Positions 59-37,699 of a stretch of DNA of 38,139 nt are shown here, piece by piece. A model generated the notes under the pieces. It did not search any database, was not told the origin of the DNA, and worked only from the letters and a program-made list of their open reading frames with translations. Position numbers and translations under genes: made by a program. Within the stretch, counting starts at the first letter, position 1, and the number at the start of each line of letters is the position of its first letter. Origin of the DNA: a virus (lineage: Duplodnaviria > Caudoviricetes); the IMG/VR virus record IMGVR_UViG_3300033513_000030, positions 1-38,139 of that record. One strand, 5' to 3'.

Positions 59-97
59 AGGCAATCCCCTCACAAAAAGCCGAAAAACGGCCGCCCG

Positions 98-857
98 TTA
101 AAATAACCCGCCCATCACCCCCGGCTCGTAGTTCGTAATCACCAGCTCGCGGCTCTCTTGGGGGCTGCCTTGGGCATTGGCCACGCTGTATTTTATGCCC
201 AGGTCGTGCATGGTCAGGCCGTTAAACACGCGGCGGATGTCGGGGTGGTCATTGCGCCATTTCCTCATACTGCTCGATGCCGAACGGCACGCCATAGCCC
301 TCGACCTGCCAGTATGGCGGGTCGCAGTAGAAGAACGTGTGCGCCCGGTCGTAGCGCCTCATGCACTCCCGCCAGGGCAGGTTTTCGATGGTGGTGCCGC
401 CAGCCAGGCGCAGGTGAGCGGCCGAGAGGTTCTCCTCGATGCGCAGCAGGTTGACCGAGGGCGCTGTGGTTGCGGTGCCGAAGGTCTGGCCGTCAACCTT
501 GCCCCCGAAGGCGTGCTGCTGCAGGTAGAAGAAACGGGCCGCGCGCTGGATGTCCGTGAGCGGCTCTGTATTGGTGCCCTGCAGCCACTTGAACACCTGG
601 CGGCTGGAAAGCGCCCACTTGAACTGCCGGACAAACTCCTCCAGGTGGTGCTGGACCACGCGGTACAGGTTCACCAGCTCGCCGTTGATGTCGTTCAGCA
701 CCTCGACCGGGGCCGGGTATGGCCGTAGGAAATATAGGGCCGCGCCGCCGCAGAACACCTCCACATAGCACTCGTGCAGCGGGAAAAGCGGCATCAATTT
801 GTCGGCCAGGCGGCGCTTCCCGCCGAGCCAGGGAATAATCGGTTGTGCGTTTTGCAT
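98..857 (-). pseudogene. Dam/D12-class DNA adenine methyltransferase in the mom slot, frameshifted
   Basis: PIIPWLGGKRRLA, YVEVFCGGAA and DPPY motifs in ORF 249-857. The C-terminus (NDHPDIRRVF...RELVITNY) is in another frame (98-~252). Confidence 0.85.
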
Positions 858-896
858 CTGCAAGCCTTTTAAAAGCGTTAAAAATCGGCTAGGCTT

Positions 897-1010
897 CTGC
901 CGCCGCGTGCACGTGGCAGGGGGCCTTGGCCTTGGCTCACAGGTGCTGCCTGTGGGTTAAGGTGGCCGGGGCCATGTTGATGCATGGCTCCGGCCGCCTC
1001 CTCTCTTTTT
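897..1010 (+). ncRNA. Putative structured RNA antisense to the MTase leader
   Basis: Hairpins at 897-919, 930-962 (14 bp) and 964-995 (13 bp), with G-U wobbles only on the + strand, followed by CTCTCTTTTT. Confidence 0.55.
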
Positions 1011-1599
1011 ATATCCAGCCGAATGTGACCGGCTGCGGCAGGCTGGTGATGAAAGCCTGCGGGCTAACGGGCATCGCCATCGTCCCAGCCTGGATGGCGG
1101 CGAGATCGGTATAGCATGCCCCCCATACGGCGTCGCGCCACGCGATCATGGCCTTTGCCTCGGCCGCGAAGGTGGCGTTGGCACTGGTCTGGTAGGTGGC
1201 GCATGACAGCGCTGTGTCGTAGCCCTTGGCCTTGGCGGTGCCATCCAGCCAGGCTTGGACGGCCGTCTCGTACATGCCTATCAGTTCGGCCTGAGTCGGT
1301 GGAGCTGGAGGTGGGGGGGTCAAGGCGAAGCCAGCCGGTATTGAGCCGATCGACGGAACCCCCTGCTCTGCACCGGAAGTCTGATCGTACATAATGTGAC
1401 CACGGTAATCAGGCTGCAAGGACCAGGCGCCTGCCGAAAATACGGGAATCTCATTGGGCCCTGCTACAGGCGGAGCTACGTCCGTACTGTGGTCAGGGGT
1501 TATGAATACACCTGGCTCCATCGGGCTTTCCTGTGCGTCCCATAGACCGATAAGCGCACCGGTAACTGCATCAAACAGATATGTGGTTTTCGTTTTCAT
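1009..1599 (-). CDS. Tail fibre assembly/chaperone protein
   Basis: ESPMEPGVFITP..ST..APP...W...PDYRG motif typical of Tfa-like proteins; directly follows the fibre gene. Confidence 0.75.
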   Translation of the reverse strand: MKTKTTYLFDAVTGALIGLWDAQESPMEPGVFITPDHSTDVAPPVAGPNEIPVFSAGAWSLQPDYRGHIMYDQTSGAEQGVPSIGSIPAGFALTPPPPAPPTQAELIGMYETAVQAWLDGTAKAKGYDTALSCATYQTSANATFAAEAKAMIAWRDAVWGACYTDLAAIQAGTMAMPVSPQAFITSLPQPVTFGWI

Positions 1600-1610
1600 G
1601 AATCACCTTC

Positions 1611-2873
1611 TTAATATTTAACGCAAAGAAGAACACGGACACCAGCGGCCAAGTTTGCGGCACCGCCCGTGCTAGCCGTGGTTCCACCCAGCGCCGTTGC
1701 GTCCGCGTGATAACCACCGCCAGCTTGGCCAGTATTGGTATCATTTATCATGGTGGTAGACTGCTGAGCGTGCGTATGAGCAATAACCTGGCCAGCCGTC
1801 TGCGTTCCGACGTTCGCACTGGCTTGCACAGCGGCGTAGTCCGCAGGAAAGTACGGAATGCCGAACGTAGTTACACCGTCTCCCGCGCCCCATGTCGTGC
1901 CGATCGCCGCGAACAGGGCGGCATAGGTGGCTCGTGAGACGCTTGTTGCCCCGGTTGGGCAAAGAAGATACCCGGCGGGAGCCGTAATTCCGGCGAACTC
2001 GATGATGGTTCCCGCCGGTACGCCGCTTGCATTCCCTGAGGCCAGGTCGGCATAAAATACCAACGTCCACGCGGGTGCCACGCCAGCCGCCGCAGTTGCG
2101 GCGTAATAGAACAGCTTCTGGCCCGCATCGGTCATCACCTCACTCCAGCACGGCCCAGCCACGTCTCGCCCCGCCCACACCGCTGCGGTAATAGAGGTAT
2201 TGTTGACCACCATATACTCGGCGTTGATGGTCGCGCCGTTGTACTGCATGCCGGTCACACCGACGAGGTCGTAATAACGGCGGTCCCGTGCGCCCGCCGG
2301 GTCGCCGAAAGTTTCCACCAGGCCGAGGGTCGGGTTGTTTTGCAGCAGGTAGCGTGCGTCGCCCTGCGATTGCACAAGCGAGGTGATGTACACCTTATTG
2401 TCCGCAAGCACGTAGCTCCAGCCTACCACGTCGCCTGTCGCCAGGTCCCCGGCTGCCAGCGCGCCGCCGACGTCATTTACCAGGGAAACCGGCCCCGCAC
2501 CCATGTCCAGGGTGCAGGCACCGGTGTTCGCTACCGGAACCTTGAAACGCCCGCTGATGTCCGCCGCATAAGCGGCGATGGCTGGGTTCAGGGCCACCAC
2601 GTAGGCGTTGGCCACGCCAGTGGCGAGCGCGTAGTTGCCGGATCGCGCCTCGATCAGCTTCTCGATGGCAAGCAGTACTTGCGCCCGGTTGTTGGGGTCG
2701 AGGGCCAACCCCGCCGCCTCGGCGATGCCGGCTAGTTCTTCCTGAACTGAGTTGCACCAGGCGGCATCGAACTCGGTAGGGTTAACACCCAGCGCCTGGT
2801 CGCCATTCTTAAATCCATCCTTGCCCGCCCCGAACAGTCCTACGGCACGGTTTGGTGTATCTATTCTCTGCAT
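1611..2873 (-). CDS. Tail fibre protein with tail-collar domain
   Basis: Mu S-like N-terminus (MQRID...WCNSVQEELA); collar motif GTIIEFAG..APAGYLLC...YAALFAAIGTTWGAGDG.TTF. Confidence 0.85.
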   Translation of the reverse strand: MQRIDTPNRAVGLFGAGKDGFKNGDQALGVNPTEFDAAWCNSVQEELAGIAEAAGLALDPNNRAQVLLAIEKLIEARSGNYALATGVANAYVVALNPAIAAYAADISGRFKVPVANTGACTLDMGAGPVSLVNDVGGALAAGDLATGDVVGWSYVLADNKVYITSLVQSQGDARYLLQNNPTLGLVETFGDPAGARDRRYYDLVGVTGMQYNGATINAEYMVVNNTSITAAVWAGRDVAGPCWSEVMTDAGQKLFYYAATAAAGVAPAWTLVFYADLASGNASGVPAGTIIEFAGITAPAGYLLCPTGATSVSRATYAALFAAIGTTWGAGDGVTTFGIPYFPADYAAVQASANVGTQTAGQVIAHTHAQQSTTMINDTNTGQAGGGYHADATALGGTTASTGGAANLAAGVRVLLCVKY

Positions 2874-2887
2874 GAGTCGTTCCTCTT

Positions 2888-3442
2888 TTAAGCGTAGGCA
2901 AATAACACGGTGGTGTGCGCTGGCCGATCCTCGGAGATCGCTCCCTCTACCAGCGAGTGTCCCCAGCTAGCCAGCGGTGCATTGCATGGGCTGTTGCAGC
3001 TTGCCCTGAAGCTGCCGCCAGTCGCAGGCAGTGACAACCTCCACACGAACAGATCGTTCTGCCCTACCAGCGCCGAATTGCAGTTGTCGTTGCAGGTCGC
3101 CCTGCGGTATTCGGTCATTACGGCGTTCGGGAAGCCATAACGGGCGGCGAGCGCGAGGTAGTAGCCGCGAGACTGGCCGCCGCGCTCGTTGACCTTGGCC
3201 AGAAGCTGGGCGCGGCGCTGTTCCAGCGACAACCCGGAGCCGCTGAGGTTGTAGAGGCGTTCGTAGTCTGGCAGCAGCGAGTAGACGGTACGCGGGTCGA
3301 ACTCGTTGAGCAGCTGCTCGGCGTTGGCTTGGGCTGCGTCCAGGGCGTTGCCCTCGGCCGCCAGCTCGACGGCGATCATCTGGCCGTTCGGATCGTAGGC
3401 GTCGGGCGGCAGCGAGAGCTTGAGGAGGTCGGTATTGTTCAT
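2888..3442 (-). CDS. Baseplate protein, Mu gp48/DUF2313 family
   Basis: LLPDYER, GGQSR.YY, RPAHT motifs; lies after baseplate J. Confidence 0.85.
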   Translation of the reverse strand: MNNTDLLKLSLPPDAYDPNGQMIAVELAAEGNALDAAQANAEQLLNEFDPRTVYSLLPDYERLYNLSGSGLSLEQRRAQLLAKVNERGGQSRGYYLALAARYGFPNAVMTEYRRATCNDNCNSALVGQNDLFVWRLSLPATGGSFRASCNSPCNAPLASWGHSLVEGAISEDRPAHTTVLFAYA

Positions 3443-3444
3443 GG

Positions 3445-4518
3445 TCAGCTCAGCGTGACGGTTCCCAGGGTGGCGAGCTGCGCGTGGGTCGAGTCGGCCA
3501 GGATGACGACGTTTGCGGCGGGAGCCACCAAGTTGACGTCAGTGACGCCGTTAACGCTCATCATGAGGGCGATCAGCTTGGCGCGCGGTACCGACACGCC
3601 AACGCTCAGGGTGGCGAACCAGGCGGCCAGCACGGTGTTGATGCGGGTGGTGGCGTCGGCCAGGGTGATGCCGGACAGGGTGATCTGGGCGGTGACCGCC
3701 ACCGGCACCAGGGTTGGGCCGAGCACCAGCAGGTCCACGCAGGGCGGGCGGCGCGACAGGTCGTTGATGTAGGCCGTGACCGCGGCGATCAACGGCGCCG
3801 ACGGGACTCCGCCGTTCGCCTCGATCACCACATCTACGCTGTTTGCCGTGCGGCGCTGGCCAAATATATAGGCGTCTGAAACGCCGGGCACTTCGAGCGC
3901 CCAGCGGTAATAGTCCGCTTCTGACCCGCCGTGCGGCGGCATCTGAATGTCGAAAAGATAGCGCGCCAGCAGCTGCTCCTGCGTCTCGATGTCGGCGCCA
4001 CCTGTCATGCTGAGGATTATTGCGTTCGCCGAGACTCCAGGCGGGGCATTGGTCAGGGCAGCAGGCGTATTAGCTCCCTGGTTTCCGGCGCTCCCGGCCT
4101 GTACGGCCTGCGCAGCGACGGACACGGTGCCACCAGCGCCGATCACCCCCGCCACGGTGGTCACGAACGCCACGCCCGCGTTGTTTTGCACACCCGTTCC
4201 GTTGGGCACGGGGGCGCCGACGGTCCCGGAAAACTGAACAGTTCCTGCCGCAGCTACGGCCTGCTTCTGGGTGATGCCCCGGATCGCGGCGTGGCGGATC
4301 AAGTAGTCAAGGTCGGCCGTGTCCGCCATCAGCTGGCGGGCGATCCATTGCTGGTGCTGGTACAAGCCCTCGATTGCGTTGCCGGTCGCGGCTCCGCGCA
4401 TGGCGAAGTCCGAATCGTCTCCGACATATGGCGGCTGCTGCCAGTTGCGCGTCTGGTTCTGAATGTCCCGAAGGATGTCCGCTTTTACCTGGCGATAGTC
4501 TTTAACGGGGAATGGCAT
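3445..4518 (-). CDS. Baseplate J-like protein (Mu gp47)
   Basis: DTAD..YL.RHA, GGADIET, PPHGG...DY..WALEVPGV motifs. Confidence 0.92.
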   Translation of the reverse strand: MPFPVKDYRQVKADILRDIQNQTRNWQQPPYVGDDSDFAMRGAATGNAIEGLYQHQQWIARQLMADTADLDYLIRHAAIRGITQKQAVAAAGTVQFSGTVGAPVPNGTGVQNNAGVAFVTTVAGVIGAGGTVSVAAQAVQAGSAGNQGANTPAALTNAPPGVSANAIILSMTGGADIETQEQLLARYLFDIQMPPHGGSEADYYRWALEVPGVSDAYIFGQRRTANSVDVVIEANGGVPSAPLIAAVTAYINDLSRRPPCVDLLVLGPTLVPVAVTAQITLSGITLADATTRINTVLAAWFATLSVGVSVPRAKLIALMMSVNGVTDVNLVAPAANVVILADSTHAQLATLGTVTLS

Positions 4519-4519
4519 G

Positions 4520-4888
4520 TCACATCACCGGGATCGGGTGTTTGAACGCGAAGGTCTCGCCGCTCGCCGCGAGAACCGAAATCAGCAGATTGAGGCGCCC
4601 AGGTTGGCGCTCCGTGGCGACCGTGATCGACCGGGCGCGGCCATCCGTGCGGATCGGCGCGAGCGCCTGATCCGCGTATTGTTGGGCGAGCACCGCCATG
4701 CGCGGCAGGTCTTTGACGCGCCGCAACTCGCCGAGGCGGCTGCCGAACGTCTTGTCGCCCCAGTAGCTGCCGTAGGGCACCGTCAGGCGCAGGTAGATCG
4801 AGTTCGCCAGGCCGCCTGCGGGGTCGCGCTGCGCTGCGCCCTGCAATAGGACGTAGTCTTTCGTGGTGGGGTTGATCCATGCGTCCAT
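4520..4888 (-). CDS. Baseplate wedge protein (Mu gp46)
   Basis: GSYWGD..FGSRL..L.R.K, YA.QAL motifs; position. Confidence 0.88.
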   Translation of the reverse strand: MDAWINPTTKDYVLLQGAAQRDPAGGLANSIYLRLTVPYGSYWGDKTFGSRLGELRRVKDLPRMAVLAQQYADQALAPIRTDGRARSITVATERQPGRLNLLISVLAASGETFAFKHPIPVM

Positions 4889-7800: not shown

Positions 7801-7826
7801 TTTAACGCCCTGTATGAATAGGGCGC

Positions 7827-16640: not shown

Positions 16641-16646
16641 GCCGCC

Positions 16647-16693
16647 ATTCTGGCGATGGCGGCGGGGAGAGTTAAGGCGGAAGGGCTTCCGCC
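16647..16693 (-). promoter_or_regulatory. Late promoter 2 (P_I-like)
   Basis: GGCGGAAGCCCTTCCGCC-TTAAC, 18 nt, CAGAAT, 6 nt, ATG of the protease. Confidence 0.8.
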
Positions 16694-16699
16694 CTAACA

Positions 16700-16910
16700 G
16701 GTGATGAGCTTTTTACACCCTATCAGACCCCCGCCAAAAATGCAAAAACGGGGCTACAGTGAATCCTGTAGTCGAGCAACGCAGAAAACAGGCCCGGCAA
16801 GACCGTTAAAGCGGCGTTAAATTCGGCGCGGATAATTTTTCGCTACATCGAGGCGCACCGGTGGGCGAAAAACGCGGAAAACGCGTTTTAAACGATTTCC
16901 GGTTTTCCGG
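16700..16910. promoter_or_regulatory. Candidate strong gyrase site (SGS) region
   Basis: Non-coding G-I interval near the genome centre, where Mu has its SGS; phased A/T tracts. Confidence 0.5.
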
Positions 16911-27248: not shown

Positions 27249-27473
27249 TTAGAAGGTCGTCGGTTGAGCCACCGCGCGGGTGAGCGCCATCATCCCCGTC
27301 TGGAGATCGGTCGCCCCGATGCTCACCCAGCGCGAGTCTATGCCTGGCGTTGCGCGAACCTTGTCAACAAGTGCACCGAGTTCCTCGCTCTTGGCCTTGA
27401 TCTCGTTCATCAGATCGATTTCTGCCTGGGTGAGGTCCCGGTAGCCCTTAATGTGCTTATGCTGGTTTTCCAT
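27249..27473 (-). CDS. acb2: Anti-CBASS cyclic-nucleotide sponge Acb2 homologue
   Basis: MENQHKHIKGYRDLTQAEIDLMNEIK...RW.SIG.TDLQTGMMAL.RAVAQP.TF closely matches the recalled Acb2 sequence, with Y11 and K26. Confidence 0.88.
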   Translation of the reverse strand: MENQHKHIKGYRDLTQAEIDLMNEIKAKSEELGALVDKVRATPGIDSRWVSIGATDLQTGMMALTRAVAQPTTF

Positions 27474-27498
27474 GTCGTTTCCTATGATCGTTTGAGAG

Positions 27499-27783
27499 TT
27501 ACTTCGCCACGGCATCCTTCAGGGCCTTGGCGGCGCTGAAGGCGGGCTTGCGCTTGGCGGGGATGTCCATTTCCGCGCCGGTGGCCGGGTTGCGGCCCTT
27601 GCGCGCGGCGCTGGTTTTAACGCTCAGCTTGCCGATGCCATCCAGAACGACTTCGCCACCCTTGGCCAGTTCGGCTTGGGCGATTTCTGCCTGCTTTTCC
27701 AACACCCACTTGATGGCGGCCTTGGATTGGCCCTTGTTGTCGTGTGCGTTGGCGATTGCGTTGATCAGGTCTTGCTTGTTCAT
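27499..27783 (-). CDS. HU-family DNA-binding protein
   Basis: MNKQDLI, AARKGRNPATG..M.IPAK..P.F.A.K.LKDAV. Confidence 0.93.
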   Translation of the reverse strand: MNKQDLINAIANAHDNKGQSKAAIKWVLEKQAEIAQAELAKGGEVVLDGIGKLSVKTSAARKGRNPATGAEMDIPAKRKPAFSAAKALKDAVAK

Positions 27784-28048: not shown

Positions 28049-28269
28049 GCCGTTGCCTTCTCATGCCAGCGGTTGAATAGGCGGCGCAGCGCGTAGCTTC
28101 TGGCAATGCTGACGACCGTGAACAGCAGCCCGATCTGCAGGTTCTTCTGCAGGGAAATATGGATTCCGAACAGCGGGAAGATCAGGAGTTGCGCAGCCAG
28201 GGCGATGAGGTAACCCAGCGCCACGTTGACCAGCGATTCGAGCAGGGAATGGCTGCGGGACTGGCTCAT
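28045..28269 (-). CDS. Small two-TM phage protein
   Basis: QSR.HSL.ES.VNV..GY...FT.VS.ARSY.LRR.FN, a recurrent phage family; start reset. Confidence 0.75.
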   Translation of the reverse strand: MSQSRSHSLLESLVNVALGYLIALAAQLLIFPLFGIHISLQKNLQIGLLFTVVSIARSYALRRLFNRWHEKATA

Positions 28270-28787
28270 GCCTCTGCCTCCGCCGCCACGTCCGCCAGCA
28301 GCGCGTTGACGATCTTGTCCACGTCGCTGTCGGTCGAGCCGATGAAGGCCACGTCGCTGTCGGCTGTGACGGTGACGCCGATCTTCTTGAGCTGGTCTGT
28401 CTGCAGGTTGTTCATGGCCTCCTTGCTCGGCCGCTCGGTGGTGACGATGAGGGTCTCGGCCAGCTCGGGGAAGTGCTTGCGGATGAGCTTGATCACCTGG
28501 CCGGGGTCGGCGAACTCGATCCGGCCCTTTTCCTTCTTGAACCCGCACTTGATGCCGTGCAGGGTTTGGGATTTGGGGCGCTTGAACAGGTCCGGCGCTT
28601 CGGCCACCAGGGCGAGCAGGGTGTCTCCGGTCTGCGTGGCCTCGGCGACGGCGGCGCGTAGCCTGGCCAGGCGCTTGCGCTTGACGGCTTCCAGCTCATG
28701 ATTGAGCATGAATACCAGGTGCTTGAGCTTCTGCCGGGCGTCGGCGTGGGCCTTGGCGCGGGTTTCGATTTCTTGCATGGTTGCCAT
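28266..28787 (-). CDS. Gam-like host-nuclease inhibitor / DNA end-binding protein
   Basis: Coiled coil, LF.RPKS..LHGIK.GF.K.KG, L.KIGV; early-region position and size. Confidence 0.65.
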   Translation of the reverse strand: MATMQEIETRAKAHADARQKLKHLVFMLNHELEAVKRKRLARLRAAVAEATQTGDTLLALVAEAPDLFKRPKSQTLHGIKCGFKKEKGRIEFADPGQVIKLIRKHFPELAETLIVTTERPSKEAMNNLQTDQLKKIGVTVTADSDVAFIGSTDSDVDKIVNALLADVAAEAEA

Positions 28788-28788
28788 T

Positions 28789-28995: not shown

Positions 28996-29002
28996 ATCGT
29001 CC

Positions 29003-29320
29003 TTATGTCGGTAGGTGGGTTTGCCCGAACAGTTCGCCCAGCATGCGGCGCAGCCTTCCGGCCTTGCCGAGTTCATGCTTGGCGCGCTGGTCATGGAATT
29101 CGATGGTTTCGATCAGCTCCTGGCCGTTGGCGGCGATGTAGTAGCCGTCCCGCGGGGTGCCGCAGATGGCGACGTTCTCCGTCTCGATGGCCTCAGTGAT
29201 GAGCTGGCGCAGGGCGCGTGGCTTCATGTCGAGGCGCTTGGCCAGATCCTCGGCGGAGATGCCGTTACCCTTGCCGACGTGGCGTGCGAGGGCGGCGATG
29301 AGCTGGTTAGGCGTGGTCAT
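29003..29320 (-). CDS. Winged-helix DNA-binding protein
   Basis: GK.NGIS..DLA..L....R.LR..I...ICG....GYYIA pattern. Confidence 0.75.
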   Translation of the reverse strand: MTTPNQLIAALARHVGKGNGISAEDLAKRLDMKPRALRQLITEAIETENVAICGTPRDGYYIAANGQELIETIEFHDQRAKHELGKAGRLRRMLGELFGQTHLPT

Positions 29321-29579
29321 GGGTGCCTCCGTGGGTGGGGAGCGCCACCGGGCGCACGACTATTCCGCTGATGCGATCCCGCCGCTTGGGCGCGGGGACG
29401 AGCTGGCGCGTCTCGTGCAGCAGCTCGTACACGCGTCCCGACACGGTGCTCTTTTCCAGCGCCAGGGCGTGGGCCAGTTCGCCTATGCTCCAGTCGCCGC
29501 CGCTCTGGCGGATGTGGTCGAGGATTTGTGTGGTCTGCTTGCATTCCACGCGGCGGCGGCCTAGGCCGCTTCTAGCCAT
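29307..29579 (-). CDS. Putative HTH protein
   Basis: WSIGELAHALALEKSTVSGRVYEL helix-turn-helix pattern. Confidence 0.65.
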   Translation of the reverse strand: MARSGLGRRRVECKQTTQILDHIRQSGGDWSIGELAHALALEKSTVSGRVYELLHETRQLVPAPKRRDRISGIVVRPVALPTHGGTHDHA

Positions 29580-30132
29580 TTGCATCGGTTCCTCCCTTCT
29601 TCAGTGCTTGTTTAACGCTTGCGGGCATGGGGCGGCGGGGCTTGGGCGCGCCTTCGCCCCCGTCCCCTCTCCCCGCTGGGGGAGTGGGGAGTTGTGTGGC
29701 GCCGATGGGCGTGTGGCCACCGCGCCTTGCCTCGGTCTGCGATTCCTGCCTGGCCTCGGCCTTATTGGAGTAGCCCGCGATGATCTCCAGCAGATAGCCG
29801 TGGCTTTTTAACGGGAGGGTGAGGCGGTCGCGCTTGGTCACGATCTCCTCCAGGGCCATCTTCCAGTAGTCCTGCGGGGCGCTCCAGGTCCGCCCGTTGC
29901 GCTCGATGCTGGCGGCCTGGATCATCGGCTGCAGCTCGCCGAGTATGGTGGCCACGCGGTCGAACGAGAGCTGGCGCTTCGGCGGCCGGAACAGGGCGAG
30001 GTACTGGACCAGCAGCTTGCCCAGGGGCGCGGGCAGCTGCAGCGCGGCCATGACTGCGTCGCGCGCGCCTTCGCTGCCGATGATGGCGTCCAGGCTGGAC
30101 ACGGCTCCGCAGGCTGGGCAGGTGGTTTTCAT
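29572..30132 (-). CDS. Conserved Mu-like hypothetical protein
   Basis: CPACGA..SLD, YL.LFRP.K..L, PLKSHGYL.EI; start reset to MKTTC. Confidence 0.8.
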   Translation of the reverse strand: MKTTCPACGAVSSLDAIIGSEGARDAVMAALQLPAPLGKLLVQYLALFRPPKRQLSFDRVATILGELQPMIQAASIERNGRTWSAPQDYWKMALEEIVTKRDRLTLPLKSHGYLLEIIAGYSNKAEARQESQTEARRGGHTPIGATQLPTPPAGRGDGGEGAPKPRRPMPASVKQALKKGGTDANG

Positions 30133-30341
30133 TTGGCAGGCTTCCACTCGAAGTCCGGGGCCTCGCAGTAGCCGATGGGAGTGCCAAAGGCCGCGTCTAT
30201 GATGCGCCACTTGCACCTTGCGCCCATGACCTGGGCGATCATGGCGGCGGGGCGCTCGATGTCTTGCATCTGCAGAGAGCAGCCCTTGACTACGTTGCGC
30301 CAGGCTCCGCTGTCGTTGACCTGGAGGATGAAGGTGGTCAT
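30129..30341 (-). CDS. Hypothetical protein
   Basis: MTTFILQVNDSGAWRNV; GGAGG RBS; ATGA coupling. Confidence 0.65.
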   Translation of the reverse strand: MTTFILQVNDSGAWRNVVKGCSLQMQDIERPAAMIAQVMGARCKWRIIDAAFGTPIGYCEAPDFEWKPAK

Positions 30342-30610
30342 TTCGCCTCCTGGAACATGTCGACGGCGTGGGCGCAGCGCGACGGCGGCACCGGCTGGCC
30401 GTTCTCGACGTGGGCGGTGCATACCGGGTCGTCGTTGCAGTTGTATTGCCACTCTTCCGGGTAATCCGGGTCTTCGACCTTGAGCCACATGGTGCGGGCG
30501 GCAATGTCGCAAGGCTCGTGCTGGCCGTTTTGGCAGGTGCCGCACCAGTCGGCGATGAAGGCGGCGCCGACGGTGTGGTTGGTGGGCTGGAATTTGCGTA
30601 CGTTGCTCAT
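30338..30610 (-). CDS. Cys-rich hypothetical protein
   Basis: F.P.N.T.G..F...WC..C...C.I...YP.EW......P.CT; ATGA coupling. Confidence 0.7.
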   Translation of the reverse strand: MSNVRKFQPTNHTVGAAFIADWCGTCQNGQHEPCDIAARTMWLKVEDPDYPEEWQYNCNDDPVCTAHVENGQPVPPSRCAHAVDMFQEAK

Positions 30611-30855
30611 TGCGCCTCCGCCAGCACAATGGGTTTGACCACGATCTGGCGCGGCTTGAACACGGTGTAGACCCGTGCGCCGTTCCTGACCTCGACCACG
30701 GCGGTGCGGCCGTTGAGCAGCTCCAGGGCTTCGCGGGCGTCTGTCTCGGCCTGTGCGGCGCGGGCCAGCGCGGCGTCGCGCTGGTCGCGCAACTCGCCGA
30801 CGTAGTAGACGGCGACCGCGGCGGCTGCGATGGTGAGCAGGGATAGGCCCTTCAT
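30607..30855 (-). CDS. Small membrane-anchored hypothetical protein
   Basis: MKGLSLLTIAAAAVAVYYV TM plus coiled coil. Confidence 0.6.
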   Translation of the reverse strand: MKGLSLLTIAAAAVAVYYVGELRDQRDAALARAAQAETDAREALELLNGRTAVVEVRNGARVYTVFKPRQIVVKPIVLAEAQ

Positions 30856-31193
30856 GGCTGAGCCTCCCCCATGTTGCCGTACGACAGGTGTGTGAGGATG
30901 CCGCAGCCGACAATCACCACGCCGGTGGCGATCTCGTGCCTTGCGCCGTCCGGCATGGTCACGTTTGGGCGCAGGCGCATGCGGGCGGGGATGGTCGCTT
31001 TCCTTTCGCCGATTCCCTTGCGGATCGCGTTGCCCCGCGCGGCCGTGCTTTTGCGGACGCCGAGCTTGCAAGCCTGCACCTGCAGGGCGCAGGTGGTGCA
31101 GCCGATCTCTTTGGCCAGCGCCTCGTTATCCGCGTCCGGGTACCGTTCGCGCACGATGGCGAGCTTTTCCTTGGTCCAGAACAGTTTGGGCAT
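30852..31193 (-). CDS. Hypothetical protein with HTH/Myb-like N-terminus
   Basis: WT.E.L......YP......LA..IG.T..A....A.KLG.RK. Confidence 0.65.
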   Translation of the reverse strand: MPKLFWTKEKLAIVRERYPDADNEALAKEIGCTTCALQVQACKLGVRKSTAARGNAIRKGIGERKATIPARMRLRPNVTMPDGARHEIATGVVIVGCGILTHLSYGNMGEAQP

Positions 31194-31493
31194 TTATGCC
31201 TCCCCCTCGTTCCAGCGGACTTCGCAGTCCGCCAGCATGACCTGCTTGTAGCGGCGCTGGAAGCCGATGCCGCGCTCGAAGTGGCTGGTGGCACCTTCGC
31301 CCAGCAGGGCCTCGCACAGCGGGCCGGCGCCGATGAAGATGCGCGGGAGCGCGTGGTCCTGCTCGATGCGCAGCACCCGGAAGCCTTGCACCTGCAGCCA
31401 GCGGATACACATCGTCGTGATGACTGCTCGGCAAAGGCGTTCCCACGCGGACCGGCGGTGGGCGGGGTTTGACACGGTTACGGCGTTAATCAT
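31194..31493 (-). CDS. Hypothetical phage protein
   Basis: Coupled ORF ending C.V.W, RBS present. Confidence 0.65.
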   Translation of the reverse strand: MINAVTVSNPAHRRSAWERLCRAVITTMCIRWLQVQGFRVLRIEQDHALPRIFIGAGPLCEALLGEGATSHFERGIGFQRRYKQVMLADCEVRWNEGEA

Positions 31494-31851
31494 GCTTCTC
31501 CTCCCTAGTGTTGTGTTTACAGGTGCGGCATACCTGGCGCTGGGCCAGGCGTGCCGGATCGTGGCTGGGCGTGGGGCTGGAATGCACGGCGCGGCAGTCT
31601 TCCGCGACGATCTCGCTCTGCAGGTACGGGCATTCCCAGCGGTCCAGCACTTCCAGGATGCGGGCGGCGATCTTGTCGGTCTTCGCCGCGTAGATGCCGT
31701 TGAGCACCTGGGAGATGGCCGGGCGCCCGTATTGCCTGGCGTAGCCCGCGGAAAGCCGCGTGGCGACCGCAGTGACGCTGCTCTCCGCCACTGCGCGCTG
31801 CAGGAGCTGGTACCAGCGTTCGCCGGCGTAGGGGATGGGGCGCTGGTTCAT
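31486..31851 (-). CDS. HTH plus Cys-rich protein
   Basis: VA..L......ISQVLNG.Y HTH; CPYL...C...C..C. Confidence 0.75.
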   Translation of the reverse strand: MNQRPIPYAGERWYQLLQRAVAESSVTAVATRLSAGYARQYGRPAISQVLNGIYAAKTDKIAARILEVLDRWECPYLQSEIVAEDCRAVHSSPTPSHDPARLAQRQVCRTCKHNTREEKHD

Positions 31852-32468
31852 GCTTCCAATACCTCCAGCACTTCGTCCGCATCCTGAACGACGACGATTT
31901 GGTGGATGTTCGGGTCGTAGACCACCTTGGCGCGGGTGATCATCGGGGGGCGGGGACCGTGGACCTTGCTCTTGAGCAGGCGGTATTCGGCCTGGATGGA
32001 GCCCTTGCGGCCGCCGTGCTTGTCCTCGCGCTCGATCGTTAAATACCCGGCCTTGCGCAGGGCGTAGACGTAGGATTTAACGGTCTTCTCGTTGACGGCG
32101 GCGACCTCGGCCAGCACGCGGGTGGTGAAGCCGCCCAGGGCCTGCATGGCGCCCCAGATGGCCTCGTTCACGCTGCCCTGGGTGACCAGCTGGCCATCCT
32201 TGCGCAGGCGCGGGGCCTCGACACCAGGGTCGTTCACCAGCTGCCAGCGCTGGCGGGTGCGGTCTGAGCGGGCACGGCGGGTGATGGTCAGGATGCCGGC
32301 GCCGGTCAGGCCCTGCAGGTAGTCGCACGCGGAGTCGTTGGTGACGCCGACCGGGGTGACGTCGTTCAGCTCGAAATCCTTTCCGGCGGTGGCACGGACC
32401 ATCTGCCAGATGCGCTGACGCGGGGTCTTTCCGCCCTGCATTTCGAGGTGGATGGGTTTACGCGGCAT
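31848..32468 (-). CDS. Tandem winged-helix protein of Mu-like early region
   Basis: Two repeats of W..M....F...L....Y...L..AG.L; GP.PP....V.DPN. Confidence 0.75.
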   Translation of the reverse strand: MPRKPIHLEMQGGKTPRQRIWQMVRATAGKDFELNDVTPVGVTNDSACDYLQGLTGAGILTITRRARSDRTRQRWQLVNDPGVEAPRLRKDGQLVTQGSVNEAIWGAMQALGGFTTRVLAEVAAVNEKTVKSYVYALRKAGYLTIEREDKHGGRKGSIQAEYRLLKSKVHGPRPPMITRAKVVYDPNIHQIVVVQDADEVLEVLEA

Positions 32469-32895: not shown

Positions 32896-32896
32896 T

Positions 32897-33655
32897 TCAG
32901 CCCCTCCTCGGTGGTTCGCCGGTGTGGATCGGGCGGTTTCCCCACTTGGCCAGGTCCACGCTTTCCCAGGCGTTGCCCATTGCCTCTTCCTGGATGGTTT
33001 CCAGGTTGGTGGAGATCCGGCGCACGCTGCCGCGGGCCTTGTCCACCAGGTGGCTCAACAGGTCGTCCGCGACCTTGATGTGCGGGCAGTAGAGGCGCGC
33101 GAGTTCGCGGGCGTCCTCGATTCCGGCCGGCTGGGCCGGGTACCAGTCAAGGATGCGGCCGTGGAAGCGCTCCCACTTCTTGAGCTTCTGCGGGAGGGCC
33201 TCCTCGCCGATCAGCATGATGGCGGCGCGGCTGGACTCGTACAGGCTGCGCACCGATTCGACCAGGTTCTTGTCCGCGACATAGTCGAATTCGTCGATGA
33301 TGAGCGGGCGGGCGCTCTGTTCCAGCTGGGCCGCGGCCATGCGCGCCATGTCGGCCACGGTGTCGGCGGGCTTGAACTGCAGGCCGAGCGCGCGGCAGAT
33401 GTCCTGCATCATGACCTTCTTGGTCCAAAAGTCGCTGGCCTGCACGTAGTACGCGCGGTTGCGCGCTGTGACCCAGGCGGCGGCGATGCTCTTGCCGTAG
33501 CCGCTGGGGCCGTTCATCACCACCAGGCCGGGCTGGTGGAGTTGGCGGCCGAGGGCGCGGCTGATCGCGCGCTCTGCCACGGCGATGTTGACCAGGGGCG
33601 CCACGCCCTTGATGGCTGGGCCGTGGTCTTGTGTTGCTTTGCTTTTCTGCGTCAT
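32897..33655 (-). CDS. Transposition AAA+ ATPase (MuB-like)
   Basis: Walker A GPSGYGKS, Walker B LIIDEFD; follows the transposase. Confidence 0.92.
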   Translation of the reverse strand: MTQKSKATQDHGPAIKGVAPLVNIAVAERAISRALGRQLHQPGLVVMNGPSGYGKSIAAAWVTARNRAYYVQASDFWTKKVMMQDICRALGLQFKPADTVADMARMAAAQLEQSARPLIIDEFDYVADKNLVESVRSLYESSRAAIMLIGEEALPQKLKKWERFHGRILDWYPAQPAGIEDARELARLYCPHIKVADDLLSHLVDKARGSVRRISTNLETIQEEAMGNAWESVDLAKWGNRPIHTGEPPRRG

Positions 33656-33694
33656 AATGTCTCCCTTAGGTTAGGAATTGCTGCATCAGGCCCT

Positions 33695-35962
33695 TCAGAG
33701 TTGCTGCTCTGAGGGGCTTTCTTCTTGGCGCATCGCTCGAATCGAGCGGTACGCCGAAGTCATGGGGAACCTGTGGTGGAAGCGCTGCTGCCAGGGTTCC
33801 GTTAAATTTCCTCCCGCCTGCACGGTGCCCTCCAGCTCCTGCCAGAGGTCGTATTTCTGTTCGTCGGTCATTTGCTCCAGCGGCGAGGCGGAGTACTGCG
33901 CCGGGTGCTGAATGACGATGGGGTTGGGGTTGAGTGCCGCGGCGTGCATCTGGCGGGCTTCTTCCATGAGCTTGGCGTGCTCCGCCGAGAGCGCCGGGGC
34001 CTGGCCGGCCTGGATGACGCGCTCGGCTTCGCGCAGGGCCTTGGTGTCGTGCCCGGCGGCACGCTTGGCCAATACGGCCACTTTGCCTGCCTTTTCGGCG
34101 CGCGAGAGCAGCAGCCCCTTGACCAGGTCTTCCGTGGACATGGGTAGTGCGCGCTTGGCTGCCTTGTATTCGCGGCGTTTCTCGGCGATGAACTCCTTTT
34201 GCAGGGCGCGGCCGTGGGCTGCGACCTCCGCGCGGTCCATGCCTGTGCGTTCCGGGCACTCCGCAATGCAGAGGAACTTGCCGTCGACGTACACGATGAG
34301 GCGGCCCAGATCTTCCGAGTGGCGGATGTCGGCCAGCTTGCCCTGGTGGATAGGCAATTCAGCGTGTATGTACGTGGCACCGTCATACCTAATTCCCTTT
34401 TTGGTAATGGTGGGCATGCGGCCGGCCGGCTTGGCCAGGAGGATGTCCAGCGCACGTTCGTTGGCGATGCGGCTGACCGTTCCGGTGTGGCTGGCGACCT
34501 TCTGCAGGGGAGAGCTTCCCAGGCTGCGGTGCTCGCGCTGCATGTAGATGCCGTCTACCCACTGGTTGGTGAGCTGCTGCAGCTCCTCGACGGCCATGTC
34601 GACCTTGACCACGGCGTTCTTCTTGAACAGGCTCTCGGCGAAGGTTTGCTTGGCCTCGATCTGCTTTCGCTCGGCGACGTTGTGGCCGATAAAGTTGTCC
34701 AGCATCTCCAGGATGCTGTGCAGGAAGGTCTGGATGAAGCGCTCGACGTGGCCCTTTTCCCAGGGGGAGAACGGGGCGGAGAGCCTGTGCTCTATTCCCA
34801 TTTCGTCCAGGAACATGCGCATTTCGCGGCTGACGTAGTCCGATCCGTTGTCGGTTTTAACGGTCTGCGGGACGCCCCAGTCCAGGATGGCGCTGCGCAG
34901 CAGGAGCTTGTTGGTTTCTGTGCGCGGGGTCTTGGAGAACAGGATTTTCGGGCGGCGCGACCAGATGTCCAGCACGACGGAGGCGGTGTAACGGCCGCCG
35001 ACCAGCTCCCAGTCGGCCGGGGTGCCGTCCATTTCCCAGCGCTGGTTGAGCGCGACCACGTCTTCGTCCAGCTTGCCCAGGGCGCTGAGGAAGTTGTTTT
35101 TCCAGGCGTCCGGGTTGGTGACGGCTAGCAGGGCCTGCTTGTTGCGGTCCTCAAAGGCAGCACGCCAGCGGCCGATTGCCCAATAGCTGACCTTGGGCCA
35201 GGCGATCACGCCGGTTTGCTTGTCGACGGCGTGCTCGTTGATGATGTCGCACAGGTGCTTGTTCTGGATATGTGGCTTTTCGGTGATGATGGCGATTAGG
35301 GCCTTTTCCAGCTCGTGGTTCTGCTCGATGATGCTTTGCCTGCCTCCGCTTCCGCCGTTGACGGCGCGCTTGTCGGCGCAGGCGACCAGGCCCTGCTGCT
35401 CGTTCTGCAGCACCCAGCGCTGGATCGACCGGGCGCTGATGGTGGTGTATTTCTCGCGGACGGCGTCCGATACGCGGATGCGCTTGGCGTTGTAGTCCTC
35501 GGCGAAGGCATGGAAGGCCTCGTTGCGGCCGATGTGGTTGCCGTCGGCGTTGTGGATGCGGAAGTAGTCGCGAAATGCCAGGACGATGTCATAGGAGGCT
35601 TCGAACTTCTCGCGGCCCTTGATCGACAGGCTGGCCATGAGGTCTTCGACCTTGACCTGCGTTCTGGCATGCTGCTCGGAACGGGCCTGGGCCTTGACGG
35701 CTGCCATGACGGTGCGCGCGGCCTGGGCGGCCTGGCCTTCGGCCTTGATTTGCTGGCGGGCAGCGATGAGTTTTTGCACCTTGGCGGGCGGGGTGTATTC
35801 GCGTTTAACGCCACCACGGCCACGGCTCTTGATCTCGGTGAATTCCCAGGATTCGCGGTCTACCAGGTCGCGCAGAGCGCGTTCTGTAGTGGGTAATCCA
35901 GGAAGCTGCAGCGCGGCGAGTTCTGAGCAGGAATAGCGTGTTTTAACGGCTTGCACTACCAC
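33695..35962 (-). CDS. DDE transposase (MuA-like)
   Basis: N-terminal Mu DNA-binding domain; WEMDGT, TDNGSDY, KG.VERF catalytic motifs. Confidence 0.95.
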   Translation of the reverse strand: MVVQAVKTRYSCSELAALQLPGLPTTERALRDLVDRESWEFTEIKSRGRGGVKREYTPPAKVQKLIAARQQIKAEGQAAQAARTVMAAVKAQARSEQHARTQVKVEDLMASLSIKGREKFEASYDIVLAFRDYFRIHNADGNHIGRNEAFHAFAEDYNAKRIRVSDAVREKYTTISARSIQRWVLQNEQQGLVACADKRAVNGGSGGRQSIIEQNHELEKALIAIITEKPHIQNKHLCDIINEHAVDKQTGVIAWPKVSYWAIGRWRAAFEDRNKQALLAVTNPDAWKNNFLSALGKLDEDVVALNQRWEMDGTPADWELVGGRYTASVVLDIWSRRPKILFSKTPRTETNKLLLRSAILDWGVPQTVKTDNGSDYVSREMRMFLDEMGIEHRLSAPFSPWEKGHVERFIQTFLHSILEMLDNFIGHNVAERKQIEAKQTFAESLFKKNAVVKVDMAVEELQQLTNQWVDGIYMQREHRSLGSSPLQKVASHTGTVSRIANERALDILLAKPAGRMPTITKKGIRYDGATYIHAELPIHQGKLADIRHSEDLGRLIVYVDGKFLCIAECPERTGMDRAEVAAHGRALQKEFIAEKRREYKAAKRALPMSTEDLVKGLLLSRAEKAGKVAVLAKRAAGHDTKALREAERVIQAGQAPALSAEHAKLMEEARQMHAAALNPNPIVIQHPAQYSASPLEQMTDEQKYDLWQELEGTVQAGGNLTEPWQQRFHHRFPMTSAYRSIRAMRQEESPSEQQL

Positions 35963-36407
35963 TCCCCCTCAGTACGGCCTCCAGCGCCTTGCGGCGCTCG
36001 GCGAGTTCTTTTTCTTGGCGATGCAGACGCGCCCATTCGAGCAGGGCTGTGTCGGTGCTGGTTACAATCTTGCGGTTTCCGCGTTTTTCGGCGAACAGGC
36101 CTAGCAGCGCGTCCTCTTCGACGGCTGCATCAAAGGCCATTGCACGCATGAAGCTGATGTCGCGCACCGGCTGGTCTCTTTCCGCAGCCTGCGTGGTATG
36201 GGAAGGGGCAACGTAGCCGTTCAGGGTGCCGACGCCGATCTTTTCGCCCAGAAAAGTGGACATGCGGGCGGCAACTTCTTCCCGGCTGATGCCACGGGTG
36301 CCAGCGCGCTTGAGGGCGTCCGCCATCGTGGCGGCGATCTCGGCGCGGCAGCCCAGGGAGCCTGGGCGGGTGGTGTTTTCCGAGAAAAGGTCGAGCGATC
36401 TGTTCAT
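35943..36407 (-). CDS. Putative DNA-binding regulatory protein
   Basis: SREEVAARMS..LG..I....LN.Y HTH-like segment; between ner and A. Confidence 0.7.
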   Translation of the reverse strand: MNRSLDLFSENTTRPGSLGCRAEIAATMADALKRAGTRGISREEVAARMSTFLGEKIGVGTLNGYVAPSHTTQAAERDQPVRDISFMRAMAFDAAVEEDALLGLFAEKRGNRKIVTSTDTALLEWARLHRQEKELAERRKALEAVLRGSGSASR

Positions 36408-36541
36408 TTCGCCCTTCCCGTGCGGCCCCGGTGGGTTTCCCAGGTGCTGTATTTCCAGCGCTCCTGCAGGACAAGCGCGACACGGGGTGACTGGACCAGT
36501 TCGCGCATCATGCTGAGGCTGATAATGACCTTGGTCTGCAT
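36404..36541 (-). CDS. Small ORF (45 aa), not in the ORF track
   Basis: MQTKVIISL...GRAK starts 1 nt after the ner stop; its stop overlaps the next ATG. Confidence 0.45.
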   Translation of the reverse strand: MQTKVIISLSMMRELVQSPRVALVLQERWKYSTWETHRGRTGRAK

Positions 36542-36542
36542 G

Positions 36543-36899
36543 TCAATGTGCCGCCGCTAAATTTGCGTTGCGCCGCCTGGCGGAACCGTTAAACTTCGCC
36601 TTGTAACGGCCGCGTCCGCGCTCGCCGCGCCCGCTTTTTGGGGTGCCATCCTCGTGGTATCGGCTGGGCCAGATGGTTTGCGGGGTGGTGCCGAGGTGTT
36701 CGGCGATGATGCGCTCGTACTTTGGGGCGGGATAATTCAGCGCGTTACGCAGCGTTCCGCCTGATGTATAGCCATGCTCGAACGATAGTTGCTGCAGCGT
36801 CGTTCCAGTCTTGCGGACCGCAGCAATGATGTCCGCACGATGCCAGTCCTTTGGGGCTGGTTTTTTTGGCTTGTTTAACGTGTTCAATGTTTTTGACAT
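36543..36899 (-). CDS. ner: Ner-like transcriptional regulator
   Basis: DWHRADIIAA.RK.G.TL..LS, P..E.IIA..LG..P..IWPSRY. Confidence 0.93.
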   Translation of the reverse strand: MSKTLNTLNKPKKPAPKDWHRADIIAAVRKTGTTLQQLSFEHGYTSGGTLRNALNYPAPKYERIIAEHLGTTPQTIWPSRYHEDGTPKSGRGERGRGRYKAKFNGSARRRNANLAAAH

Positions 36900-36905
36900 A
36901 GGCGC

Positions 36906-36934
36906 ACTATAGAAGCACTTCGGAAGTCTGTCAA
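36906..36934 (-). promoter_or_regulatory. Early promoter Pe
   Basis: TTGACA, 17 nt, TATAGT; ner ATG follows after 6 nt. Confidence 0.88.
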
Positions 36935-37033
36935 CACTTCCGAAATGAGGAAGTCGCGTAGCTCTACATAAGTAATTTAAATCAATGGATTGTAAATATG
37001 GAAACGGGCGGGCTTAATTCGGAAGTTACTTCC
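36917..37033. promoter_or_regulatory. Operator/enhancer region with IHF site
   Basis: ACTTCGGAAGT (36917-27), ACTTCCGAAAT (36936-46), AATTCGGAAGT (37016-26); AATCAAtggaTTG (36980-92) fits WATCAANNNNTTR. Confidence 0.72.
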
Positions 37034-37699
37034 ATATTCCTCACGGTTAAGGAACTGGCTGATCTTCATTTGCCGGGTTACCCAAGTACGGAACGCGCTT
37101 GGCTAGACTTGGTAAAACGCGAGAACTGGTCGTTTCAAGAAGTGAGGGGGAAAGGCCGGGGCGGTATGCAAAGGCGCTTCGCACCACCTCAGGCGGTTAT
37201 CGCGCTCATCCAGGATCGCCATGCTGGCAGGCCCTTGGGGCGTTACGAGGCTAGGGAGGCCGCTCCTCCTGCGGCGCCCGATGGGTTCGTGCTGGTACCG
37301 CGCTATAACGTTGCTGGAAGCATGGGCGGAGGCCAGGTGATACACAGCGAGCAGATCGTGGACCACCTGGCTTTTCGGGCAGAATGGGTGCGGACGGAGC
37401 TGGGCACCAGCCCGGCTAACCTGGTGCTCATCTCTGCGGTTGGGGATTCAATGGAGCCGACGCTGCGGGCGCACGATCTCCTGCTGATCGACCGCAGCGT
37501 GATGGCCGTTAAACAGGATGCGATCTATGCCTTCGCGGCGGAGGGAGAGCTGCGGATCAAACGGATTCAGCGGCTTTTCGACGGAAGCCTGGTCATCAAG
37601 AGCGATAACTCGGCCTACGGCTCGGAGATGCTAAGCGCCGAGCAGGCCGGTTCTATCAATATCATCGGCCGCGTAGTGTGGTCCGGGCGTCGCATGTGA
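36998..37699 (+). CDS. Repressor: Mu DNA-binding domain plus S24 (LexA/CI-type) peptidase
   Basis: N-terminus resembles the transposase N-terminus; GDSMEP serine and IKR lysine motifs; divergent from ner. Confidence 0.9.
   Translation: METGGLNSEVTSIFLTVKELADLHLPGYPSTERAWLDLVKRENWSFQEVRGKGRGGMQRRFAPPQAVIALIQDRHAGRPLGRYEAREAAPPAAPDGFVLVPRYNVAGSMGGGQVIHSEQIVDHLAFRAEWVRTELGTSPANLVLISAVGDSMEPTLRAHDLLLIDRSVMAVKQDAIYAFAAEGELRIKRIQRLFDGSLVIKSDNSAYGSEMLSAEQAGSINIIGRVVWSGRRM

Follow-up and report, generated by a model that had tools for sequence, protein, structure and literature searches.

It remains a question how a transposable phage keeps from inserting into itself, here a genome of 37 kb. Phage Mu has about 38 kb of its own DNA to protect and organise, with MuB bound inside; in the parts of the Mu study covered here, MuB alone leaves most of the genome immunity unexplained and is needed for the Mu chromosomal domain (PMC7350765). 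The MuB of Mu binds DNA without sequence preference, and no sequence mark or adaptor is described for Mu in the literature covered here. In Tn7, a DNA-binding protein, TnsD/TniQ, acts beside TnsC, an ATPase of the MuB/TnsC family, with attTn7 as the short DNA signal. Words such as DUS/USS, HIP1, Chi and the matS-type sites are exact, lie within genes at a codon cost, differ between lineages as dialects and turn over at single sites. Finally, the strong gyrase site (SGS) of Mu is a single central site that is read by its shape.

The window analysed here, a whole stretch of 38,139 nucleotides with a GC content of 63.4%, is a Mu-like myophage. Its top 7-mer is CGTTAAA, which between positions 96 and 37,513 occurs 38 times, against expectations of 1.6 copies under base composition and 1.5 under an order-2 Markov model. 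The copies are interleaved on the two strands, 19 as CGTTAAA and 19 as TTTAACG, and a Chi-like strand polarity is not seen among them; G or C directly precedes 34 of them (17 and 17). These figures agree with the earlier note, which had listed the same 38 positions, counted the same preceding bases, estimated about 64% GC and expected one or two copies. While 10 copies are intergenic or straddle a gene boundary, 28 lie wholly within coding sequence in four frame and strand settings (14, 7, 4 and 3), where they occupy 28 of the 131 positions that the proteins permit. In 1000 synonymous-codon shuffles the genic copies average 1.45 and never exceed 6, which excludes a codon or dinucleotide artefact and supports the earlier claim of selection on the DNA, as does the use of TTA leucine codons: 11 of the 26 in the gene set fall within the word, including all five sites named previously. 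The 21 one-letter variants are rare, with 0–8 occurrences each, and the word is therefore sharp. An RNA-level signal is unlikely, since the word favours neither strand in a genome whose genes nearly all point the same way. The copies are spaced no more evenly than at random (CV 0.84, P 0.19), and the longest gap between them is 2884 bp (P 0.08).

The enrichment appears to belong to the phage. In 11 genomes of hosts of related phages the word is present at 0.01–0.15 per kb and rises only inside prophages; in a 3.0-Mb genome with 110 copies, 28 of the 100 copies listed fall within 41.7 kb. The word thus stops at the prophage borders in these hosts and is therefore not a host-wide word akin to HIP1, DUS or Chi, the alternative that had been set beside the proposal of a phage mark; it is the latter that holds against the chromosomes of the relatives' hosts. 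With DUS/USS, HIP1, Chi and matS-type sites the word shares its shortness and exactness, its place in coding sequence at a codon cost, its lineage dialects and its single-site turnover, but unlike these it is confined to prophages, has no strand polarity and follows a spacing grammar. The word is missing from B3-type prophages of the same host family; the many Rhodocyclaceae-family GemA loci that are such prophages served as negatives. Mu itself is not enriched (12 against 8.8).

The spacing grammar concerns copies that face each other. Across 32 loci, 44 face-to-face pairs span 34–37 bp and 33 span 45–48 bp, against 0.68 expected per offset, whereas the profile of back-to-back pairs is flat. 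A held-out set of 36 loci yields 24 in-phase face-to-face pairs against 1.05 expected, 13 of them in two candidate reader genes that make up 8.2% of the length. Phased pairs are found only in phages in which a short MuB is followed by these two genes, one for a double winged-helix protein and one for a helix-turn-helix protein with four cysteines (HTH/Cys); the module-less Mu, G041 and L162 show no pair excess (8 against 7.5, 7 against 8.3 and 4 against 4.8, respectively). In five genomes comprising 23.9 Mb all six in-phase pairs lie in Mu-like prophages, and two out-of-phase controls lie outside. Pairs common to kin are not independent events; those in or beside the two candidate reader genes occupy seven different positions in different lineages. 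The only phased pair of the window (32,037–32,082, span 46 bp) lies inside the double winged-helix gene, and all 14 of its bases are kept in five of five relatives at 54–60% protein identity. Single sites, by comparison, turn over: 13 of 106 aligned comparisons are kept, and 10 of these 13 are the pair. The other 36 copies in the window have no face-to-face partner, no degenerate partner is found above control, and the pooled one-mismatch profile is flat. A virus-wide blind scan for a CGTTAC pair gives about 510 stretches with in-phase and about 500 with out-of-phase spacing; 3 of 80 of the former and 0 of 80 of the latter bear the module, which is no significant difference.

The four genes described next all lie on the minus strand. 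A MuA-type DDE transposase is encoded at 33,695–35,962, and the MuB-family AAA+ ATPase (32,897–33,655, 252 aa) lacks the N-terminal HTH domain of Mu MuB, its profile matching Mu MuB residues 92–285 (E 4.9e-16). The double winged-helix protein (31,848–32,468, 206 aa, phrog_2030) and the XRE-like HTH protein with four invariant cysteines (31,486–31,851, 121 aa, phrog_2119) are the candidate readers. The phage ends probably lie at 12–59 (right-hand, late side), where position 12 probably holds the terminal TG and short repeats resemble transposase sites, and at 37,728–37,890 (left-hand, repressor side), with TGTGCCA-type repeats, a likely terminal CA at 37,890 and host-like DNA beyond. The ends bear another repeat, and CGTTAAA is spread over the genome instead of being clustered at the ends or between repressor and ner, which does not fit a transposase end site or a repressor operator. 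The window also holds a Gam-like gene with a weak match. Among 63 loci, short MuB is present in all 15 that are strongly marked and in 9 of the 35 that are unmarked, and the other two genes in 14/15 and in 8/35 and 8/35. The winged-helix protein is predicted with high confidence to contact MuB; the best of three control pairings scores close to zero and the pairing with MuB replaced scores nil. The winged-helix/MuB pairing passes the threshold applied to such predictions, which 116 of 157 solved complexes and 2 of 215 mismatched pairs also pass; its runs share at least 36% of their contacts, the partner pLDDT is at least 75, and the predicted face comprises winged-helix residues 102–124. The likely readers, at 31,486–32,468, lie within the stretch of HTH genes (29,003–32,468) in which the earlier note had sought a binding protein, and both stand as candidates.

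The arrangement resembles Tn7 in that a DNA-binding protein adjoins a MuB/TnsC-family ATPase, which it is predicted to contact, and in having a short DNA signal. It differs in the double winged-helix fold, in the lack of a TniQ/TnsD match in Pfam or by fold for either candidate reader, and in that the word occurs many times on the element's own DNA and is absent from the host, as judged in hosts of relatives. Fold searches with both candidate readers give no match at E 0.001 or better, and the best hit of a PDB sequence search with the winged-helix profile has an E of 0.057. Compared with Mu, there is a similar length of own DNA to protect and organise, but Mu has neither the enrichment nor the two genes.

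The observed enrichment, phage limitation, lineage spellings, tandem, phased pairs, module restriction and clustering in the two genes are the ground for a tentatively favoured explanation, held at somewhat less than even confidence, that CGTTAAA is a selected, phage-limited self-mark, a half-site of the two module proteins by which MuB would be placed on the DNA of the phage itself. The word would be bound by the proteins at 31,848–32,468 and 31,486–31,851. With the winged-helix candidate predicted to contact MuB, copies of the word would tag DNA as belonging to the phage and bring the ATPase to it, and the marked prophage domain would likely be organised and kept from use as a target. Single copies may be weak sites and the pairs or the tandem strong ones, which would seat a complex of two-fold symmetry along a single face of the helix. 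The result would be an organised domain or immunity to self-insertion, and insertions would not be attracted. A wider proposal, more doubtful, is that a large branch of transposable phages recognises itself by private words, with a helical spacing grammar, dialects and a winged-helix adaptor that loads or blocks the ATPase. The HTH/zinc partner would then replace the lost N-terminal domain of MuB, and a TnsD-like selector turned inward would confer genome immunity and domain structure. The word, its spacing rule, two small proteins and a predicted ATPase contact form a testable system in which the dialects are natural specificity controls. Were the adaptor to steer MuB, Mu-type transposition would gain a new programmable handle, and two widespread unnamed phage families a function. 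Counting against the self-mark are the 36 unpaired copies of the window, the 9 of 35 unmarked loci that bear the module, a spelling that follows host family as well as a phage gene, and the self-insertion borders of phage Ab30, which miss its sites.

The placement of the pairs equally fits an operator or activator half-site of a module regulator, a possible alternative that is nonetheless judged rather unlikely. Through the pairs the two genes would regulate themselves as well as the middle and late operons, the tandem described below would serve the head-operon promoter, and single copies would be weak or decoy sites. Accordingly placed are the pairs in the two genes and those at two operon starts, in the short spacers before the middle-operon gene and the methyltransferase gene; moreover, 10 of the 38 window copies are no more than 20 bp away from a gene boundary, where 3.8 would be expected, and 94 of 422 pooled sites are not wholly genic, with 9% of the length intergenic. 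In Ab30 the insertion of anti-CRISPR genes after gene G has left the tandem next to the protease gene. Such a network, however, needs no copy per kb and does not explain 28 copies deep in coding sequence, in both orientations and at a rare-codon cost; Mor and GemA do not follow the spelling, and the predicted partner of the winged-helix protein is an ATPase.

The tandem (16,804–16,821, plus strand) consists of two direct copies at an 11-bp interval in the spacer that separates gene G from the head protease gene; it is conserved before the latter gene across Mu-like phages in each phage's own spelling. Perfect tandems are found once in each of 10 host genomes, in nine of them beside a Mu protease gene. 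A tandem scan of viral contigs mostly returned AT-rich non-Mu phages, and the non-Mu phages so picked are not enriched for the word (median ratio 1.19, 59 loci). The intergenic region between genes G and I (16,641–16,910) lies about 2.1 kb from the genome midpoint, an SGS-like position, and in Mu the SGS occupies the same place. A putative gyrase-site-like core and opposite arm follow at 16,841–16,883, with a GCT-purine step at 16,844/16,845 in an approximate by-eye alignment to the Mu cut (about 2 bp offset) and A-tracts of the opposite arm about 60 and 70 bp from the tandem. Neither this tandem, at the place of the Mu gyrase site, nor the phasing of face-to-face pairs had been noticed in the earlier note. 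Tandem, putative core and opposite arm are conserved with or without the short-MuB module, the tandem being found in module-less Mu (imperfect), Xenorhabdus-type and Stenotrophomonas-type phages, and another reader is therefore needed there.

One such reader could be host gyrase with a family preference, the word being an arm repeat of a strong gyrase site that has spread so as to attract gyrase and hold the prophage as one supercoiled domain. In Mu, CGTTAAA lies at +48 from the annotated cut, within the first 40 nt of the right arm that the portion of the SGS study covered here describes as essential (PMC6463007), with an imperfect second copy 11 bp away; the spelling also follows host family. 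Nevertheless, this explanation is unlikely. The gyrase preference, in the part of the report covered, is a degenerate, shape-read motif of 130 bp and not an exact 7-mer (PMC6379681), and the Mu SGS is one central site, whereas the exact word occurs here about once per kb in lineage spellings. The pooled flanks of dispersed copies show weak 10.5–11 bp phasing and not the long phased A/T-G/C flanks of an SGS, and pair spans of 35 and 46 are out of register with the central-site spans of 60 and 70. Mu is not enriched, nothing ties gyrase to the pairs in the two module genes, and in Ab30 about 870 bp separate the tandem from the published candidate gyrase footprint.

Related Mu-like phages spell the word as CGTTAC, CGTTAGA or CGTCAAA, which bears out the expectation of clade-specific words. 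Among clear published tandems, six of seven in one host family are CGTTAAA twice, and 12 of 15 in a second family have CGTTAC; two prophages of one host both use CGTTAAA, though the early module of one is nearest that of CGTTAC phages. If gyrase is not the reader, some other sequence-specific host protein that the phage recruits or titrates, such as a response regulator of the winged-helix type or a nucleoid protein, would account for this pattern, and direct repeats at 11 bp, as in the tandem, are the usual geometry of OmpR/PhoB-family sites. It is nonetheless an improbable reader, given that outside prophages the host chromosomes scanned have no perfect tandem and no in-phase pair, that B3-type prophages of the same host family have no word and that tandem-picked non-Mu phages are not enriched.

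Highly improbable is an adaptor acting as a TnsD-like target selector, with the word drawing insertions to look-alike host repeats and the phage copies as by-products or loading sites. In the host-side flank of the window, 19 bp beyond the likely phage end, a hairpin does contain a look-alike pair whose span is 34, and the hotspots of Ab30, which has the module, lie 55–61 bp from a host repeat with a GTTA core in the part of the study covered (PMC5977238). The flank, however, is a single match in 225 loci scanned, hosts are not rich in the exact pair, and drawing insertions into its own genome would be costly for the phage. Ab30 has module and tandem but few copies of the word and no pairs, and the borders published for its self-insertions do not align with its word sites (P 0.5–0.9). 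A neutral origin through biased mutation, codon usage or repair, which fast single-site turnover might suggest, is largely refuted by the codon shuffles, the rarity of one-letter variants, the orientation-specific spacing and a pair kept at 14/14 bases across saturated divergence.

Returning to the self-mark, co-variation with an HTH gene, proposed in the earlier note, is borne out in part: on the tree of the HTH/Cys gene (31,486–31,851) the spelling changes 3 times, against 5–7 on those of other genes and about 10 in shuffles, but no gene follows the spelling so closely that a host reader would be ruled out. Independent spelling and gene contrasts amount to at most three pairs and are not significant. 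Mor, GemA, Ner, the transposase and structural genes show no clean co-variation (AUC 0.44–0.76; broad families 0.47–0.65), and the spelling does not follow the Mor recognition helix as Mor/C late-activator sites would imply (7 tree changes, shuffle minimum 6). A residue code in the recognition helix of the HTH/Cys protein is suggested, over too few independent pairs for more, by an arginine that is present in 15 of 19 CGTTAC phages and in 4 of 17 CGTTAA phages.

Both the count and the coordinates of the earlier note stand exactly: the window (63.4% GC) carries 19 CGTTAAA and 19 TTTAACG, against 1.6 copies expected from base composition and 1.5 under an order-2 Markov model. Coding sequence of the curated gene set wholly contains 28 copies in four frame settings, filling 28 of 131 permitted places, whereas synonymous-codon shuffling (1000 runs) yields a mean of 1.45 and a maximum of 6; the enrichment is thus real and under DNA-level selection, as had been claimed. 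One-letter variants occur 0-8 times each, and the spacing between copies is random-like. The word is also limited to phage. In genomes carrying related prophages, none being the window phage's own host, CGTTAAA occurs at 0.01-0.15 per kb (five genomes) and GCGTTAC at 0.05-0.11 per kb (five genomes), and in 2-kb bins over 12 loci the counts climb within prophage genes and drop in the flanks, weakly for host genomes G003 and G046. In the host genome G877, at least 28 of 110 copies of the word (28 of 100 among the matches listed) lie in a 41.7-kb stretch surrounding the Mu protease gene. A host-wide motif, the alternative offered earlier, therefore fails in the hosts of relatives, where density is low and the rise is confined to prophages. 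No enrichment is seen in Mu (12 vs 8.8). Eleven CGTTAAA copies also stand in 27 kb of host genome G004 (G004:C13:5909-32337), on a contig other than that of its GCGTTAC prophage and with no Mu portal match there.

The search for clade-specific heptamers in related Mu-like phages, proposed in the earlier note, shows relatives to be enriched for spellings of their own, namely CGTTAAA, GTTAAA, GCGTTAA, GCGTTAC/CGTTACC/CGTTACT, CGTTAGA and CGTCAAA; many relatives have no enriched spelling. Most marked phages double their own spelling 11 bp apart just ahead of the head protease gene (16804/16815 in the window), and ten host genomes hold one perfect tandem each, beside the Mu protease gene in nine. 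Spelling tracks host family. Among clear published tandems, 6 of 7 in the family of host G002 are CGTTAAA twice (15 loci) and 12 of 15 in that of G001 have CGTTAC (30 loci), while two further families show a tandem in 1/10 and 2/10 short stretches. A close relative, L086 (14 kb, 46% GC), has a second enriched word, CCCCTTC (17 vs 0.9), alongside CGTTAAA, and Xenorhabdus prophages have CTCTTCC, weakly. In B3-type prophage regions of hosts G268 (L428-L429), G062 and G197c, GCCCCTAC-like words exceed expectation (about 15 vs 2 in G268) and could represent host repeats or a further mark.

These dialects, and likewise a spacing rule for face-to-face pairs, are absent from the earlier note. Among CGTTA cores pooled from 32 marked loci, such pairs number 8, 14, 13 and 9 at spans 34-37 and 2, 19, 9 and 3 at spans 45-48, with 0.68 expected per offset and none at 28-33. 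At period 11 their Rayleigh Z reaches 45.8, against 1.0 for back-to-back pairs, whose profile is flat; same-strand pairs have a sole peak at 11. With the spans fixed first, 36 new loci found with a winged-helix profile (reduced from 66 under 80% identity) contain 24 face-to-face pairs vs 1.05 expected and one back-to-back pair, although pairs common to kin make these counts overstate independent events; 13 of the 24 fall in the winged-helix and HTH/Cys genes, 8.2% of the length. In five whole genomes, 6/6 in-phase pairs lie inside Mu-like prophages and 2/2 out-of-phase pairs outside; the excess is absent from Mu, genome G041, locus L162 and B3-type prophages. Across lineages, pairs take seven different positions in or beside the same two genes. 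The window's one pair (32037/32076) retains all 14 bases in five relatives at 54-60% protein identity. Single copies turn over, only 13 of 106 aligned comparisons being retained, 10 of them the window pair; the other 36 window copies have no partner above control.

Marking goes with a gene module. Among 63 large loci (15 strongly marked, 13 middling, 35 unmarked), the short MuB family (32897..33655, minus strand) is present in 15/15 strongly marked vs 9/35 unmarked loci, and the two families after it in 14/15 vs 8/35 each. The first, of 206 aa (31848..32468, minus), is modelled with two winged-helix domains (pLDDT 82.5, pTM 0.53) and matches HTH clusters in the Atlas, PDB winged-helix rows being weak; the second, of 121 aa (31486..31851, minus), combines an XRE-like HTH with four invariant cysteines, every fold match being weak. 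The short MuB profile aligns with Mu MuB only from residue 92 on, so that, unlike Mu MuB, the protein lacks the N-terminal HTH domain, whose role is described as unsettled (PMC11292022). In a three-chain prediction the winged-helix protein scores 0.80, the best of three controls 0.01, and 0.00 is obtained with MuB replaced; the mark is passed by 116/157 solved complexes and 2/215 mismatched pairs, counts that apply only approximately to our own alignments. At least 36% of contacts agree between runs, partner pLDDT is at least 75, and the confident contacts are with MuB only, which supports a predicted binding of MuB by the winged-helix protein.

Phage proteins are favoured as readers because strong sites are absent from host chromosomes, and because pairs are restricted to the module and repeatedly placed in the candidate readers' own genes. 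We infer both reader and function: the word may, with somewhat less than even chances, be a self-mark by which a symmetric complex of module proteins places MuB on the phage's own DNA. A two-fold symmetric complex would bind copies on one helix face, strongly at pairs and tandem and weakly at single copies, and its winged-helix protein would position MuB. Within the Mu genome, MuB is reported as bound and required for the prophage domain, most genome immunity being left unexplained (PMC7350765, PMC3820752). Symmetric IstB ATPase assemblies, reported to follow a 10.5-bp repeat (PMC11208146), offer an analogy only. Ab30, the sole experimental data set at hand, gives the self-mark no support: although all four genes of the module and the tandem are present, dispersed copies are few and face-to-face pairs lacking, its immunity is reported as leaky (0.4% of events; PMC5977238), and its published insertion-free stretch and domain borders do not coincide with its word sites.

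An operator network is a distinctly less probable reading; pairs do occur in short spacers before middle-operon and methyltransferase genes, and also inside structural genes. Slightly less probable again is a word belonging to a gyrase arm. The Mu strong gyrase site (SGS) stands where the tandem does, in Mu the word starts or lies 48 nt past the annotated cut (+48), an imperfect copy follows or precedes it at 11 bp, and this +48 word belongs to the right arm's first 40 nt, reported to be essential (PMC6463007); the arm is said to hold repeat motifs bending DNA (PMC10052514), and the TTT-spelt tandem is also present in phages without the module. Gyrase, however, is reported to recognise a long, degenerate motif by its shape (PMC6379681, PMC13284261). 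The full-text literature covered, which reached few subscription papers and not the original SGS dissections, where the tandem may be listed, contains no description of the dispersed word, of how its pairs are spaced or of a role for the winged-helix and HTH/Cys genes. In Ab30 (L845, 18739-19775), the anti-CRISPR locus of D3112-type phages separates gene G from the tandem, and the tandem remains with the protease gene.

Another host protein as reader is improbable. Host family accounts for the spelling roughly as well as gene trees do, and two prophages in one host have CGTTAAA in common even though their early modules differ. No gene follows spelling cleanly: trees of 30 phages, offering too few independent contrasts, require 3 spelling changes for the HTH/Cys gene, 5 each for winged-helix, MuB (4 with FastTree) and GemA, and 7 for Mor, against about 10 in shuffles; GemA is described as uncharacterised at the molecular level (PMC12407980). 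A target selector is more doubtful still, and a neutral origin is scarcely credible beside the codon shuffles.

By PHROGs and Pfam annotation of 67 ORFs, the window is a full Mu-like myophage, most of its genes lying on the minus strand: repressor, ner, transposase, short MuB, early genes, GemA, Mor, lysis, head, contractile tail and adenine methyltransferase. Named relatives of two early proteins belong to Gallionellaceae and Nitrosomonadaceae, which suggests a possible host group. The methyltransferase gene (98-863) is interrupted close to its 3′ end: its reading frame stops at 249 and the tail resumes in a different frame, which could be a true lesion or an assembly slip. An Acb2/Tad1 hairpin-domain gene (27249-27473; PF24729, E 1.9e-20), likely encoding an anti-defence nucleotide sponge, adjoins an HU-like gene (27499-27783), and a Mu Gam-like gene (28266-28787) matches PF07352 under the family cut-off (E 8e-5). 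Repressor and transposase have an N-terminal domain in common, and the ner-repressor interval (36915-37040) holds several ACTTCGGAAGT-like palindromes, likely the operator. The same REP-like sequence flanks both phage ends (1-11 and 37891-37945, 11 bases in common), and a hairpin following the left end contains a look-alike of a face-to-face pair with span 34, the one match among 225 loci scanned. This may reflect preferred insertion beside a host repeat of this kind, which has been reported for Ab30.
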